Of a DNA stretch of 64,000 nt, positions 4,801 through 38,449 are shown in pieces (within the stretch, counting starts at the first letter, position 1; each line of letters opens with the position of its first letter). The stretch lies in IMG/VR virus record IMGVR_UViG_3300045988_142422. The stretch is one strand, 5' to 3'. The position numbers and the translations under genes are program-made. The notes under the pieces are model-generated. The model was not told the origin of the DNA. It did no database searches and saw only the letters and a program-made list of their open reading frames with translations. The stretch is from a virus. Taxonomy: Duplodnaviria > Heunggongvirae > Uroviricota > Caudoviricetes.

Positions 4801-6270
4801 GAAGGCGCAATGACCATCCGAGTTACTACGCCTACAACGACAACCGGAGGTGGTATTGCCAGTGCTCAGTTCACCTATATTAATCACGGTAGCGCGTATG
4901 CCCCTGCCTGGCGCAGAGATTACAACACGACTCTCAAACCAACTGCGGCTGATGTTGGTGCGTTGCCGAGCGGTGGCGGCACACTTTCCGGCGCACTCAC
5001 ATTATCTATGGTTGCGCCGAGTGTTCAATTACGAGGGCAAGGTACTGATACCAGGCAGTACATCATGGCTTACAGAACCGATGGTGCTACATCATGGTAT
5101 GTAGGTAAGGCTAACAACGGCTCTGATAGCGCGATGCTCTGGAACTATACGGGGGCAAACGGAGTCGAGTTGGCTGCCGATGGCAATGTGCGCATTAATG
5201 CGAAGGGTAAGCAGTTTACGTTCGCAAACAACGGCAATTTGGGGCTTGTCGCTTCGTTGGATCAAAGTTCTGTTCCACAGGGCACTTACCATCAAGTTGC
5301 TATGAACTCTGGAACCAGAGGTGCTAAATCCTATCTTCGTAAGTTCAGGGGTGGGAACGCAGATACCGTCTGGCATGAAACCGTTCAAGACGGAAATTAC
5401 CGACTTGCTACTGGTGACACTGATTCTCAGGGTGAAATGTACCTTTCGACTTCGGGTTGGGTTCGTTTCCGTGGTGAAGTTGTTTCAGAATCGGCCAATG
5501 GTTTGCGAGCCGCATTCGGTAACTTCGGTTTCTTTATCCGAAATGATGGAACGAACACTTATTTCCTTTTGACAGCTTCAGGTGACAAGTACGGTTCTTG
5601 GAATGGTTTGCGGCCTCTGACTATCAACAATGTCAGTGGCGCAGTGTCAATGAGCAACGGACTAACTGTTGCTGGTGGACTTAATGTAACGAGCGGAAAC
5701 CTGAAAATCTCGACGTCCAGCACATCGTGGATCGACATGAGAGCAGGCGTAGCCCTTTCGAACTCTTCAGCTGTTTCGACGTCATCCGCTTCGGCGATAG
5801 TCCGTCAAGAACACGCCGATCGCCATTTCATTCTTGGCGGTTTGGGTAACTCGCAGTTCGGGATTTACATGATTAACAAATCTCGAACTGCGAACGGCAC
5901 TGACGCTGCCGCTTATCTCCAGAACGACGGCACTTGGGTTTGCGCAGGCAACGGTAGTTTTAATGACGTTTACATCCGTTCCGACCGCCGTAGTAAGCGC
6001 AATATTCGCAAAATTGAGCGGGCGCTCGACAAGCTGGAGCAGATCGAAGGTGTTCTCTACGAGATTCAGGTCTGTGGCCGTTATGAGCAGTCTGGTGGCC
6101 TCATCGCTCAGGATGTCCAGAATGTTCAGCCTGAACTGGTAACGGTCGACCATAACGATCAGTCAGGAGAGCCTCGTCTGCGTCTTAACTACAACGGCGT
6201 TATCGGCATGTTGGTTGAGGCTGTCAAAGAGCTGCGCGAGGAAGTGCGCGAACTGAAGGCAAAAATGTAA
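1882..6270 (+). CDS. Long (L-shaped-type) tail fibre protein with C-terminal intramolecular chaperone (peptidase S74-like) domain
   Basis: 1462 aa; long Ala/Ser/Thr-rich low-complexity tract; repeated NLPGVNTTGNQNTTGNAATATKLQTAR units; C-terminus SDRRSKRNIRKIERALDKLEQIEGVLYEI...LRLNYNGVIGMLVEAVKEL matches the autoproteolytic chaperone module of fibre/endosialidase proteins (from memory). Confidence 0.8.
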   Translation: MWYREGTITFTQGSNTLVGAGTAWNVTANGVLPGMIVIGPDNKLYEIKRVTSDTNIVLSEPYTGETQSEVPCRIITTYEGDLTQFSARFTALMSRMSADSKSMRSWLTALDEVTIEREDGTEVTVKPLMQIVNEHNENVEWYKNNTDAIDAAGDKAREAAASAAAAAESANTAGEKASQASQSVSAAASSQSAASASATAAKKSETNAAASQQSAATSASTATTKASEAATSARDAAASKEAAKSSETNASLSASSAASSATAAGNSAKAAKTSETNARSSETAAGQSASAAAGSKTAAASSASAASTSAGQASASATAAGKSAESAASSASTATTKAGEATEQASAAARSASAAKTSETNAKASETSAESSKTAAASSASSAASSASSASASKDEATRQASAAKGSATTASTKATEAAGSATAASQSKTAAESAATRAEAAADRAEEIAGAVAMEDASLTTKGVVKLSSAVDSTSESLAATPKAVKAANDNANSRVPSNRKVNGKALTADITLTPKDIGTLNSVTMSFSGGAGWFKLATVTMPQASSIVYIALIGGAGYNVGSPHQAGISELVLRAGNGNPKGITGALWKRTAVGLTNFAWINTSGDTYDIYVEIGNYATRVNIHWDCTANATVSIYTSPTYSASKPSSVTDGVVYTMYSSHQKPTPSDIGALPTTGGTVSGPLSVTGGLTGSLNGNASTATKLQTARSIGGVVFDGSANINLPGVNTTGNQNTTGNAATATKLQTARTIGGVSFDGTANINLPGVNTAGNQNTTGNAATATKLQTARNINGVKFDGSGDININTLVSRGRVTALSGSTQGTAGIQMYEAYSNNYPTSFGNVLHMKGASAAGEGELLIGWSGTDGAHAPVYVRSRRDTSTANWSGWAQVYTTAHKPTAKDVGAAQTFSASYSTGAGNWTTAEFIAWLKERGAFAVPYWMMKGSWSYADNKIITDTGVGNICLAGAVIEVLGHEGAMTIRVTTPTTTTGGGIASAQFTYINHGSAYAPAWRRDYNTTLKPTAADVGALPSGGGTLSGALTLSMVAPSVQLRGQGTDTRQYIMAYRTDGATSWYVGKANNGSDSAMLWNYTGANGVELAADGNVRINAKGKQFTFANNGNLGLVASLDQSSVPQGTYHQVAMNSGTRGAKSYLRKFRGGNADTVWHETVQDGNYRLATGDTDSQGEMYLSTSGWVRFRGEVVSESANGLRAAFGNFGFFIRNDGTNTYFLLTASGDKYGSWNGLRPLTINNVSGAVSMSNGLTVAGGLNVTSGNLKISTSSTSWIDMRAGVALSNSSAVSTSSASAIVRQEHADRHFILGGLGNSQFGIYMINKSRTANGTDAAAYLQNDGTWVCAGNGSFNDVYIRSDRRSKRNIRKIERALDKLEQIEGVLYEIQVCGRYEQSGGLIAQDVQNVQPELVTVDHNDQSGEPRLRLNYNGVIGMLVEAVKELREEVRELKAKM

Positions 6271-34474: not shown

Positions 34475-34504
34475 GTAAGGCGTCTACGGACGCCTTACTT
34501 TTTG
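34475..34504 (+). terminator. Rho-independent terminator after SSB gene
   Basis: GTAAGGCGTC-TACG-GACGCCTTAC then TTTTT; lies inside the track ORF 34468..35463, arguing for a later start. Confidence 0.75.
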
Positions 34505-35731: not shown

Positions 35732-36805
35732 ATGGCAAAAGGAAAATCCGCACTGGCACTTGCTCTGAAAAAGAAAATCGGTAGCAACGACGAAATTCAG
35801 AAAGTAACTCATTGGATTGATACAGGCTTTCCACCGTTAAACAAAGCTATTTCTGGTCGTTACGATGGCGGCTTCCCATGTGGTCGTATCGTCGAAGTAT
35901 TCGGTCCTCCAAGTGCAGGGAAAACGTTCCTTGCAACAGCAGCGATGATCTCCGCTCAAAAACAAGATGGTCTGGCGGTATTCCTCGATCATGAAAACAG
36001 TTTTGACGTTGGCCTGGCTGTCGCCAATGGCCTGAACGCAGATGAGGATGACGGTCAGTGGGTATACAAGCAGCCAGATACCTTCGAAGACTCTGTAGAG
36101 TTGATCGGCACAATACTTAAATTGGTTCGTGATGAAGAGCTTATCCCCGAATCAGCACCTATCTGTATCGTGGCTGACTCTCTTGCGTCTATGGTTCCGA
36201 ACTCCAAAGCCGAGAAGTTCGAAAAGATGGCTGAAGGCACTGCCAAAGACAAAGATCAGCTAAACATGAACGACAATACGGCACTGGCTCGTGCGACGAG
36301 TGCGAACTTCCCTACTCTGGCTTTGTGGGCACGCAAATACAACGCCTGCATCATCTTCTTGAATCAGGTTCGCACAAAAATCGGTGTAATGTTTGGCGAC
36401 CCTACTACGTCGCCAGGTGGAGATTCACCGAAGTTCTACGCTTCTGTACGTATCCGTCTTGGTGCATCGGTGATGAAGGATGGTAAAGAGAAGATCGGCC
36501 AGGACGTAGGCGCAGAATGCATCAAAAACAAAGTTGCACCACCGTATGGCAAATGCACCTGGAAATTCTACTTCGATCCTACTCGTGGCCTCGACGTTAT
36601 CGAATCGCTCGTCGAGTACATGCTGGAAGAAGGATACCTGCCAAAGAACGCCAGCGGGCGAGTTGAAATTGGTGACAAGAAATACACCAAATCGCAGATC
36701 GTTGAGATGTATCGGGAGAAGCCACTGGCTGAAATCATTGCGGCTTTACAGGCAATCGACGACCGAAGAGCAAAAGACAACCCCACCGAGTCAGTAGAAG
36801 AGTAA
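35732..36805 (+). CDS. RecA/UvsX-like recombinase
   Basis: Walker A FGPPSAGKTFLA, 357 aa. Confidence 0.75.
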   Translation: MAKGKSALALALKKKIGSNDEIQKVTHWIDTGFPPLNKAISGRYDGGFPCGRIVEVFGPPSAGKTFLATAAMISAQKQDGLAVFLDHENSFDVGLAVANGLNADEDDGQWVYKQPDTFEDSVELIGTILKLVRDEELIPESAPICIVADSLASMVPNSKAEKFEKMAEGTAKDKDQLNMNDNTALARATSANFPTLALWARKYNACIIFLNQVRTKIGVMFGDPTTSPGGDSPKFYASVRIRLGASVMKDGKEKIGQDVGAECIKNKVAPPYGKCTWKFYFDPTRGLDVIESLVEYMLEEGYLPKNASGRVEIGDKKYTKSQIVEMYREKPLAEIIAALQAIDDRRAKDNPTESVEE

Positions 36806-36810
36806 ACACA

Positions 36811-36836
36811 AGGCGTCCACAGGACGCCTTTTTTAT
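36811..36836 (+). terminator. Rho-independent terminator
   Basis: AGGCGTCC-ACA-GGACGCCT then TTTTTTATC. Confidence 0.8.
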
Positions 36837-36897
36837 CTCTTGAAAGTATATAAGTACTTACTTATTATTTTCACATAACAACCACATAGGAAAACAC

Positions 36898-37098
36898 ATG
36901 ATCAAAATCTATCTATTGGCAGTAGCCACAGGCCTTTCAGTGGCTCTCATCTACGGTTTACTGGTTCCGTCGCTGATTTCTACCAAGAGTGATTTAGCCG
37001 TCATGTTTGGAGTTATCGTTGGTTTTGGTGCTCCTGTAATCGGTCTTATTGCTGGTCGTAAGTTTATCAACTCATTAATCAAAGCAAAGGGGAAATAA
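36898..37098 (+). CDS. Small two-helix membrane protein
   Basis: 66 aa, almost entirely hydrophobic; ATG after AGGAAAACAC; 3 nt before SPFH gene. Confidence 0.5.
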   Translation: MIKIYLLAVATGLSVALIYGLLVPSLISTKSDLAVMFGVIVGFGAPVIGLIAGRKFINSLIKAKGK

Positions 37099-37101
37099 GT
37101 A

Positions 37102-37932
37102 ATGAAGAAAGGTTTACTTGCAGTTGCTCAGGCGGCTATTTGCACAATGGGTCTTACTGGCTGCGATCGCGTGGAGCCTGGATACGTTGGCATCAAAGTA
37201 AACAAATTAGGTGAAGACAAAGGGATTGGTGAAGTGGTTGGCGTTGGTCGCCAATGGACAGGTCTTAACACCGAACTTTACGTATTCCCGACCTTCAAAC
37301 AAATGAAGACCTACGACGAGCCGTTCACATTCCAGATGAGTGACGGTACTGCTATTGGTCACAAAATTGGCGTTGCGTATCTGGTTAATCGTGACAAGGT
37401 AACGACGGTGTTCCAGACCTATCGCAAAGGCGTAGACGATATCACCGAATCAGATCTGCGTCAGAAAATTGCCGACTCTCTAAACCGTTTGGCCAGCCGT
37501 ATGACCACTGACTCATTTATCGACGGTGGTAAGGCACAATTGCTGGACAACGCACTGAAAGATATTCAGAAAGAGATGTCTCCGGTTGGTATTGAGGTAC
37601 TGAGCCTGTCATGGGTTGGAAAGCCTGATTACCCAAAAACTGTCATTGAATCTATTAACGCCAAAGTAACGGCTAACCAGCGTACTCTGCAACGTCAGCA
37701 GGAAGTTGAACAACGTAAAGCTGAGGCGAATATGCTACGTGAACAGGCTAATGGTGAAGCTGATGCTATCCGTGCTCGTGCGCAAGCAGAAGCAGACGCC
37801 ATTCGTCTGCGCGGTGAAGCTCTGCGTCAAAACCCGAACGTTATGGAACTGGAAGCCATCAATAAATGGAATGGCCAGTTACCGCAGTACATGACTCAAG
37901 GGGCTAACACTCCTTTCATTACAGTGAAATAA
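37102..37932 (+). CDS. SPFH/band-7 (stomatin/prohibitin-like) lipoprotein
   Basis: Lipobox LTGC; band-7-like core with C-terminal Ala/Arg/Glu coiled coil. Confidence 0.6.
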   Translation: MKKGLLAVAQAAICTMGLTGCDRVEPGYVGIKVNKLGEDKGIGEVVGVGRQWTGLNTELYVFPTFKQMKTYDEPFTFQMSDGTAIGHKIGVAYLVNRDKVTTVFQTYRKGVDDITESDLRQKIADSLNRLASRMTTDSFIDGGKAQLLDNALKDIQKEMSPVGIEVLSLSWVGKPDYPKTVIESINAKVTANQRTLQRQQEVEQRKAEANMLREQANGEADAIRARAQAEADAIRLRGEALRQNPNVMELEAINKWNGQLPQYMTQGANTPFITVK

Positions 37933-37948: not shown

Positions 37949-37974
37949 AGGCGTCCAGTTGGACGCCTTTTTTA
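37949..37974 (+). terminator. Rho-independent terminator (same stem as 36811 copy)
   Basis: AGGCGTCC-AGTT-GGACGCCT then TTTTTTATC. Confidence 0.8.
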
Positions 37975-38023: not shown

Positions 38024-38449
38024 ATGACAGCTATTAAGAAACTCTACGATGCCGCAAACGTGGCTCTGGATGTTATTGATGATGAAGCAGCAAAAGGCTT
38101 TCCTGAACCTGATTGGGCGCATCAGCTACGAAACGCTATCGCAGAAATGACCCCACCAGATCCAACCCCCGAGGAGACAGACTGGCAGCGATTCATCCGT
38201 ATGTACGCTCAGGAAATAGGTCCAACGCCAACGGCAGAGCAGGCAATGCTGCTGAAATACTTCAAAGAGGCGGGAGAGGATTTACCAATTGATGACTCAG
38301 CATATTGGTTCCACTGCGCATGGCGTAAGTATGACGTGATATTCACACAAGGCATGGGAAGCAAAGATATGGTTGTGTGGCATCTACTCCATATAGACAC
38401 AGCCGTTGACAGAGTTATTGAACAGTTTTTCCCTAAACAAGAAGATTGA
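38024..38449 (+). CDS. Hypothetical protein
   Basis: 141 aa ORF with canonical upstream context. Confidence 0.5.
   Translation: MTAIKKLYDAANVALDVIDDEAAKGFPEPDWAHQLRNAIAEMTPPDPTPEETDWQRFIRMYAQEIGPTPTAEQAMLLKYFKEAGEDLPIDDSAYWFHCAWRKYDVIFTQGMGSKDMVVWHLLHIDTAVDRVIEQFFPKQED

Follow-up and report, generated by a model that had tools for sequence, protein, structure and literature searches.

The 64,000-nucleotide stretch of phage DNA analysed here (IMG/VR record IMGVR_UViG_3300045988_142422, Caudoviricetes; hereafter the window) carries a compact cassette of two genes whose products appear to work together in the bacterial envelope. The larger gene encodes a 276-amino-acid protein with an SPFH (band-7) domain, which we strongly infer to be a lipoprotein of the inner membrane that faces the periplasm, while the smaller encodes a 66-amino-acid membrane protein that, as judged from sequence, is its dedicated partner and is sometimes fused to it. 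The analogy with solved assemblies provides strong grounds to expect a ring or cage of the SPFH protein, with hairpins of the partner in the enclosed membrane, and the architecture as a whole, a periplasmic SPFH cage with a membrane subunit, is likely. The best explanation that we can offer overall is that this periplasm-facing cage, together with the membrane subunit encoded beside it, shields the envelope; we hold it tentatively, with slightly less belief than doubt.

Both genes are already catalogued and are annotated as an SPFH protein, lipoprotein or membrane protein. The PHROG labels are 'lipoprotein' (PHROG 200) and 'membrane protein' (PHROG 1130), and deposited records use 'SPFH domain / band 7 protein', 'stomatin-like integral membrane protein', 'lipoprotein' or, wrongly, 'serine protease'. 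Phage genome papers have noted the SPFH gene and called its role unclear or poorly understood (PMC7760394, PMC13239085), and a literature search on SPFH proteins in connection with superinfection exclusion, anti-phage activity, defence or phage-plasmids returned no functional study. What is added here, at the level of sequence, is a dedicated partner that is not an NfeD protein, a periplasm-facing topology with an inner-membrane retention signal, the recognition of a pan-phage family, and cassette boundaries at a duplicated terminator. A first-pass annotation of the same DNA had described a terminator-bounded cassette in which a two-helix membrane protein is followed 3 nucleotides later by a lipoprotein with the lipobox LTGC, a stomatin/prohibitin-like core and a coiled-coil tail. 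All of these structural claims hold up in the results below, and exclusion or envelope remodelling by the cassette, the functions it had suggested, are plausible; the protease regulation that it also mentioned is taken up below as a rival explanation.

The predicted SPFH lipoprotein

The two genes of the cassette are as follows.

36898-37098, plus strand: small partner gene, 66 amino acids, two-helix hairpin (open reading frame list, hydropathy, PHROG 1130)
37102-37932, plus strand: SPFH lipoprotein gene, 276 amino acids (Pfam Band_7, PHROG 200, AlphaFold model)

The stop codon TAA of the small gene (37096-37098) is followed by GTA and by the ATG of the SPFH gene at 37102, which leaves a gap of 3 nucleotides, and a purine-rich ribosome-binding stretch lies upstream of each gene. 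Open reading frames on the opposite strand across the cassette do not exceed 51 codons. Both genes are considered real because each has many homologues and is under purifying selection, with ratios of non-synonymous to synonymous substitution rates (dN/dS) of 0.03 for the SPFH gene (against Salmonella phage SSU5) and 0.08-0.23 for the small gene (against SSU5 and the related phage Cyrano).

The 276-amino-acid protein begins with MKK, a hydrophobic region and the lipobox L18-T-G-C21, with Asp22 at position +2, and fits the lipoprotein signal pattern [LVI][ASTVI][GAS]C plus Asp at +2. Lipoproteins of Enterobacteriaceae are canonically held in the inner membrane by an Asp at +2. The protein would be exported with a signal peptide and lipid-modified at Cys21, and the Asp at +2 would keep it on the outer leaflet of the inner membrane; lipidation and retention together would place the SPFH domain and the long helix that follows it in the periplasm. 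The lipobox is the anchor in most family members: its Cys is nearly invariant in an alignment of 26 diverse members, and the processing site reads L-[TS]-G-C-D-R in 79 of the 80 viral contigs scanned, which are the 80 closest loci. In distant homologues from Sutterella (loci L016-L019), the lipobox gives way to a membrane helix at the N-terminus that stays uncleaved, and the small two-helix partner is kept upstream; such membrane-anchored homologues support an inner-membrane location.

The stomatin/prohibitin-like core was recovered by a domain search, which placed Band_7 (PF01145) over residues 23-209 (E-value 2.6e-30; 106.2 bits against a cut-off of 23.6), and the protein belongs to PHROG 200 (E-value 1e-106). 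The structure models are of monomers. The AlphaFold model of the SPFH protein (predicted local distance difference test score, pLDDT, 78) comprises an SPFH fold and then a continuous 65-residue helix (179-243), which corresponds to the expected coiled-coil tail. The last 24 residues have pLDDT below 50 and may be a segment that becomes ordered only in an oligomer; the family has a conserved C-terminal motif, KWNGxLP. Foldseek matched the model to 67 chains of the PDB at E<=0.001, led by HflK/C (7vhq, E-value 1.6e-13), erlin and prohibitin, all at E-values of about 1e-13, with stomatin, flotillin and QmcA-YbbJ (8z5g) among the further matches. HflK/C is also the sole sequence match of the protein among solved structures and supplies its best NCBIfam matches. 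Identity as an HflK or HflC orthologue was nonetheless rejected at the equivalog cut-offs of NCBIfam (HflC, TIGR01932, 30.2 bits against 134.4; HflK, TIGR01933, 18.7 against 159.4), and identity as a flotillin was rejected because the Flot domain (PF15975) scored 19.9 bits against a gathering cut-off of 27.

These matches raise the rival explanation that the protein is a viral mimic of HflK/C, that is, a periplasmic cage that captures or displaces FtsH or another inner-membrane protease and thereby shifts the stability of phage or host proteins. HflKC-FtsH alters the stability of the CII protein of phage lambda, which gives the Escherichia coli complex a historical phage link through lambda lysogenisation, and the association of SPFH proteins with membrane proteases recurs (HflKC-FtsH, prohibitin-mAAA, stomatin-NfeD). 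The phage protein is like HflK/HflC in its SPFH1/SPFH2 domains, long wall helix, C-terminal segment and predicted periplasmic side, and HflK/C leads its structural, solved-structure sequence and NCBIfam matches alike. A universal host target would explain both the strong conservation and the wide host range, and FtsH control of the HflK/C type would account better than a shield for conservation across unrelated phages. The predicted orientation is also that of HflK/C, unlike QmcA/YbbK, which face the cytoplasm (PMC2636767). However, the NCBIfam scores lie far under the equivalog cut-offs, the structural alignment with HflK/C gives an identity of only about 17%, and a single SPFH gene stands here in place of the HflK/C hetero-pair. 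HflK/C carry an N-terminal membrane helix, whereas the phage protein is lipid-anchored without a membrane helix of its own and comes with a separate two-helix partner, which presumably fills the enclosed membrane. Many carriers are, moreover, virulent phages with no lysogeny decision to tune. We regard a mimic of this kind as fairly unlikely.

The 'serine protease' label found in the records of P88, phiP27, vB_EamP-S6, Pastis and others seems to be an annotation error copied between records, and it probably derives from 'membrane protease subunit', an old name for SPFH proteins. It was rejected here after Pfam and PHROG searches that gave no protease domain; the sole protease-labelled match, PHROG 11227 (E-value 2.8e-4), falls over the helical tail.

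The two-helix partner

The 66-amino-acid protein has two hydrophobic stretches, at residues 4-24 and 33-53 (Kyte-Doolittle means 2.1-2.4), separated by about 8 residues and followed by 13 residues that form a basic, Lys/Arg-rich tail. Its predicted topology is N-in/C-in with a short periplasmic turn only, both ends being assigned to the cytoplasm because of the positive-inside rule. It belongs to PHROG 1130 (E-value 2e-25), a family placed in the PHROG category 'moron, auxiliary metabolic gene and host takeover', and a Pfam search found no family at E<=0.1. When 30 partners and fusion N-termini were aligned, one feature was conserved, namely the turn Pro-x-Leu/Met-Ile/Val-Ser (P24-S-L-I-S28 after the first helix of the window protein), together with a Gly early in the second helix.

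The closest known arrangements of this kind are the SPFH-NfeD operons (QmcA-YbbJ, YqiK-YqiJ, FloT-YuaF and archaeal stomatin PH1511-PH1510), which likewise combine an SPFH scaffold with a small membrane partner. The phage pair differs in being phage-borne and in having a partner from a distinct family, PHROG 1130, without an NfeD/OB-fold domain. Identity of the partner as an NfeD protein was rejected, as there is no Pfam hit and the 13 residues after the second helix leave no room for the OB-fold (PF01957). In a classification of prokaryotic SPFH proteins, NfeD partners are tied only to cytoplasm-facing subfamilies, and periplasm-facing members are HflK/C and perhaps prokaryotic prohibitins, with phages and lipoproteins unmentioned (PMC2636767). 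QmcA faces the cytoplasm (PMC2636767), whereas the SPFH domain of the phage protein would face the periplasm.

The association of the two genes is tight. All 80 viral contigs have the partner immediately ahead of the SPFH gene, at spacings of 3, -1 or -20 nucleotides; as the scan covered the 80 closest loci, this adjacency holds for close relatives, and pairing in distant relatives rests on individual phage records and on fusions. In the genome loci retrieved, mainly from Enterobacterales and Sutterella, the partner is upstream of the SPFH gene in 14 of 18, while two more have IS1 between the genes and one is a pseudogene. The same families are found in SSU5 (gp62/gp61), Cyrano (CYRAN_57/56), P88 (gp12/gp11) and phiP27 (L05), with SPFH proteins 76-100% identical to that of the window and no structural difference. 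The partners diverge much further, since between the window and the P2-like phage P88 the SPFH proteins are 76% identical and the partners 25% over 44 residues; PHROG 1130 is still the match for the partner in P88, in the N4-like phage vB_EamP-S6 and in the Mydovirus KpS8 (E-values 1e-22 to 1e-26).

Among distant relatives, the two proteins are sometimes fused. An exhaustive search of cluster representatives yielded 192 SPFH clusters at E<1e-30, and 18 of the best 150 representatives (about 12%) are extended at the N-terminus by 50-100 residues. Of these, 12 were read, and all are in-frame fusions of the partner, the signal/lipobox region and the SPFH domain, the lipobox Cys is invariant in 18 of 18 fusion proteins, and the model of one fusion has three N-terminal helices before the SPFH fold. 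Fusion of partner and SPFH protein is strong evidence that the two proteins work jointly. It also fixes the topology as in-out-in-out, and therefore places the SPFH domain outside the cytoplasm; as the Cys is retained, signal peptidase II may cut the fused precursor into two subunits.

Several individual loci depart from the usual arrangement. In two chromosomes, of Shigella flexneri and E. coli (loci L009 and L010), the pair is split by IS1; in L010 (5018-6001), insA/insB lie on the minus strand at about 5218-5944 between the genes and the 3' end of the partner is clipped. The SPFH frame of Candidatus Symbiopectobacterium (L014, 5992-6153) ends after 53 codons although the tblastn match is full-length, which suggests a pseudogene. 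Salmonella phage PhiSH19 has an unannotated open reading frame of 72 amino acids (L112, 1432-1650, minus strand) adjoining the start of its SPFH lipoprotein gene; its two hydrophobic helices and strongly basic loop suggest another type of small membrane partner. A PhiSH19 neighbour labelled 'superinfection exclusion' was rejected as a functional clue, being a soluble protein of the GP17 family (PF17420) with another small open reading frame between.

Distribution and possible role

A translated search found the SPFH family in 373 records of the phage collection. Temperate carriers include phiP27, Stx2a-converting, P2-like and SSU5-like phages, and strictly virulent carriers include N4-like phages, Mydovirus, Seunavirus, Felix O1-like phages, Bruynoghevirus, jumbo phages, phiCbK, crAss-like and Lak phages. 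The hosts have two membranes for all 60 records sampled evenly down the ranking of phage matches. The cassette or a relative occurs in 283 of 5426 complete E. coli genomes (about 5%), mostly on phage-plasmids, at 198 places on plasmids and 101 on chromosomes; the chromosomal copies examined belong to P2-like, P88-type prophages. In virulent phages, the SPFH gene sits among early or replication genes. In P88-type prophages, the pair lies inside the early operon, where the start codon of the partner overlaps the stop codon of the preceding gene, and no separate promoter for the pair was seen in P2-like prophages. As for the Sutterella homologues, a phage-type DNA primase gene follows the pair in L018 (5812-9462), and one assembly has two copies.

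The early position, the patchy and non-essential occurrence, the two-membrane hosts and the periplasmic placement together argue for an accessory function during phage development that is exerted on the envelope from its periplasmic side. Because the family is equally common in virulent phages and lies in the early operon of P2-like prophages, this function would belong to lytic growth rather than to an exclusion expressed purely by the prophage. In the mechanism that we propose, the two genes, 3 nucleotides apart, would probably be translated together. The SPFH protein would assemble as a ring or cage that covers part of the inner membrane, as in the solved assemblies HflKC-FtsH, QmcA-YbbJ, prohibitin, erlin and flotillin, and the partner would insert as a hairpin into the covered patch, touching the base of the cage through its conserved periplasmic turn P-x-L/M-I/V-S. 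The partner would thus take the role of NfeD proteins or of the N-terminal membrane helices of HflK/C. The walled-off patch might then shield the envelope while the phage develops, and perhaps in the carrier state of this phage-plasmid as well, either by hindering a second phage from delivering its DNA or by keeping the inner membrane stable until lysis. This shield role is weakly suggested by the present data and ranges, in our estimate, from doubtful to possible.

Virulent phages provide precedents for early genes that act in exclusion at the envelope. T4 imm and sp and T5 llp are non-essential early genes with products in the inner membrane or periplasm; Imm is a small two-helix protein, and Llp is a lipoprotein. 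They share with the cassette an early position and the envelope location that is predicted for its products, and differ in having no SPFH domain and no detectable homology to the cassette. A relation of the partner to T4 Imm was specifically rejected: its profile scores -3.9 bits against T4 Imm, and it does not match PF14373 (Imm_superinfect), which T4 Imm itself matches at an E-value of 7e-16.

Several findings weigh against the reading as a lipid-anchored, excluding cage. Classical exclusion proteins are usually narrow in distribution and fast-evolving, whereas the SPFH protein is strongly conserved (P2-like and SSU5-like phages share 76% identity, dN/dS as given above) and common to unrelated phage types. 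The models of PADLOC-DB v2 gave no match to either protein even at E<=1. Some family members have Glu, Ser or Asn at +2, and in a close E. coli lineage of 95-96% identity (proteins P0002 and P0006, on 23 and 175 contigs) the lipobox Cys is replaced by Tyr (IIGYDRVEPG). The protein of that lineage cannot be lipidated and is probably anchored instead by its uncleaved signal sequence, and these replacements indicate that the lipid anchor is not indispensable. In addition, some distant phages (Bruynoghevirus, Felix O1-like) have no adjacent PHROG 1130 partner.

A bolder version of the shield explanation can be formulated, in which the pair is a minimal, self-sufficient phage device: a periplasmic SPFH cage and a novel type of two-helix partner that replaces NfeD would seal or reorganise the inner membrane early in infection by many unrelated phages, with signal peptidase II cutting the fused precursor, where there is one, into its two subunits. 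If true, this would amount to a broad barrier against the DNA entry of secondary phages or against membrane-targeting host defences. We consider it fairly unlikely.

The composition of the pair, a lipoprotein and a small membrane protein, is superficially that of spanins, and SPFH scaffolds could in principle organise holin rafts; the cassette might therefore be imagined to act in lysis, as a regulator of holin timing or as a spanin-like pair. However, the pair lies in no lysis cassette among the contexts examined, its neighbours being recombination, replication or early genes. The Asp at +2 speaks against an outer-membrane lipoprotein, and the small protein, with about 8 residues between its helices, has no periplasmic domain. 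Identity as a spanin, whether Rz/Rz1 or unimolecular, was rejected given the recombination and replication neighbours and the inner-membrane signal, and a lysis function altogether is very improbable.

Another rival explanation is a lipoprotein of lysogenic conversion or virulence that leaves the cell on vesicles and is detected by the animal host. Two points speak against it: bacterial lipoproteins activate TLR2 in general, and the family is well represented among virulent phages that infect environmental and plant bacteria. The precedent for such a role is PM0222 of Pasteurella multocida (OAZ06802.1), a prophage-encoded, HflK/C-like protein of 25-35 kDa reported from outer-membrane vesicles, which is reported to activate TLR1/2 and whose deletion reportedly attenuates virulence (PMC9872710). 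PM0222 is a prophage SPFH protein of similar size with an envelope and vesicle association and a possible member of the PHROG 200 family, and the role reported for it is in virulence and innate immune signalling, not in phage biology. We give this explanation very little credence for the cassette.

As a compact two-gene system, the cassette is amenable to expression, deletion and purification. If either the shield or the control of FtsH proves true, it would represent a new class of envelope-acting phage tool and a simple model of an SPFH cage; if neither does, it would be an ordinary accessory membrane gene.

Cassette boundaries and genomic setting

The borders of the cassette and its candidate promoter are the following.

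36810-36836, plus strand: terminator T1, hairpin 36810-36830 AAGGCGTCC-ACA-GGACGCCTT and a T-run (terminator scan)
36840-36868, plus strand: sigma-70-like promoter, TTGAAA-17 nucleotides-TATTAT, 30 nucleotides upstream of the small gene (consensus scan)
37949-37974, plus strand: terminator T2, hairpin 37949-37968 AGGCGTCC-AGTT-GGACGCCT and a T-run, the right border

T1 (folding energy -14.7 kcal/mol) marks both the end of the recA transcription unit and the left border of the cassette, and T2 folds with -15.1 kcal/mol. As the first-pass annotation had claimed, the two hairpins that bracket the pair share the same stem: the window holds exactly two copies of the pattern AGGCGTCC-loop-GGACGCCTTTTTT, and none of 100 shuffles contains it. 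The promoter-like site matches the consensus at 10 of 12 positions, the top score of the 5-kb region, and the equivalent position in SSU5 reads TTGAAA-17-TATCAT. By its layout, with a promoter-like site, two close genes and a terminator, the cassette is an autonomous two-gene unit. An Rfam scan of the cassette found no family near its gathering score (best 24.7 bits against 51.4). A third terminator-like hairpin at 34477-34500, GTAAGGCGTC-TACG-GACGCCTTAC with a T-run, lies directly 3' of the SSB-like gene. It belongs to the same stem family, so the stem is a recurring terminator type of the region and is not specific to the cassette; repeats of such look-alike terminators may provide portable sites at which gene cassettes recombine.

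Over this region, identity is 99% with 'Escherichia phage CMS-2020a', 96-97% with Cyrano and PhiR41_1 and 81% with SSU5, which identifies the window as an SSU5-like phage-plasmid of E. coli. Upstream of the cassette is a recombination operon (UvsY-like gene, SSB, exonuclease, RecA), and downstream are a DUF7238 gene, small open reading frames, a Cra-like gene and repA. Klebsiella phage ST13-OXA48phi12.3, which runs collinear with the window as far as recA, lacks the pair and has one hairpin of the same type after recA. Its left flank corresponds to the sequence left of T1 and its right flank to the sequence right of T2 in SSU5, and the two genomes therefore differ exactly by terminator-promoter-two genes-terminator versus terminator. 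With one terminator at the cassette site in the Klebsiella relative and a duplicated one in the window, the cassette behaves as a discrete unit of gain or loss. The pattern is consistent with recombination between terminator copies, in either direction.

A promoter-like site and terminators of its own, combined with presence or absence between collinear relatives, are the sequence features by which a moron is recognised, and the cassette shows all of them. They lend some appeal to a further rival explanation, a defence of prophage type (abortive infection or exclusion) that is expressed in the carrier state only and protects the lysogen. Variable occurrence among sister phage-plasmids, the moron and host-takeover category of the partner family and the E. 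coli carriage reported above, mostly on phage-plasmids, agree with it. The P2-like pair, however, overlaps a preceding early gene and has no separate promoter, many carriers are strictly virulent, and the PADLOC search was empty for both proteins. A defence confined to the carrier state is, on balance, decidedly unlikely, and a function in lytic growth, with the envelope shield as its tentative form, remains our preferred reading.

The alleles of the cassette are themselves mosaic. Compared with Cyrano, identity changes at about 37100, between the two genes: the end of recA, T1, the promoter and the partner gene are 62-88% identical, whereas the SPFH gene is 98-100% and the region downstream 92-100% identical. 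The sharp breakpoint indicates that partner alleles have been exchanged independently of the SPFH gene.

Two of the neighbouring genes also vary among relatives. The RecA-like gene of the window (35732-36805) is uninterrupted and encodes 357 amino acids; the same gene encodes 779 amino acids in Cyrano, PhiR41_1 and plasmid pXH988_2, where it bears the PGAP label LAGLIDADG homing endonuclease. The difference suggests an intein-type insertion of about 1.27 kb in recA of these relatives, for which the window would carry the empty allele. Downstream of the cassette, the DUF7238 gene spans 38024-38449 (E-value 2e-37), and in the cassette-free Klebsiella phage (L003, 4280-4456) apparently only a short N-terminal remnant of this gene is left.

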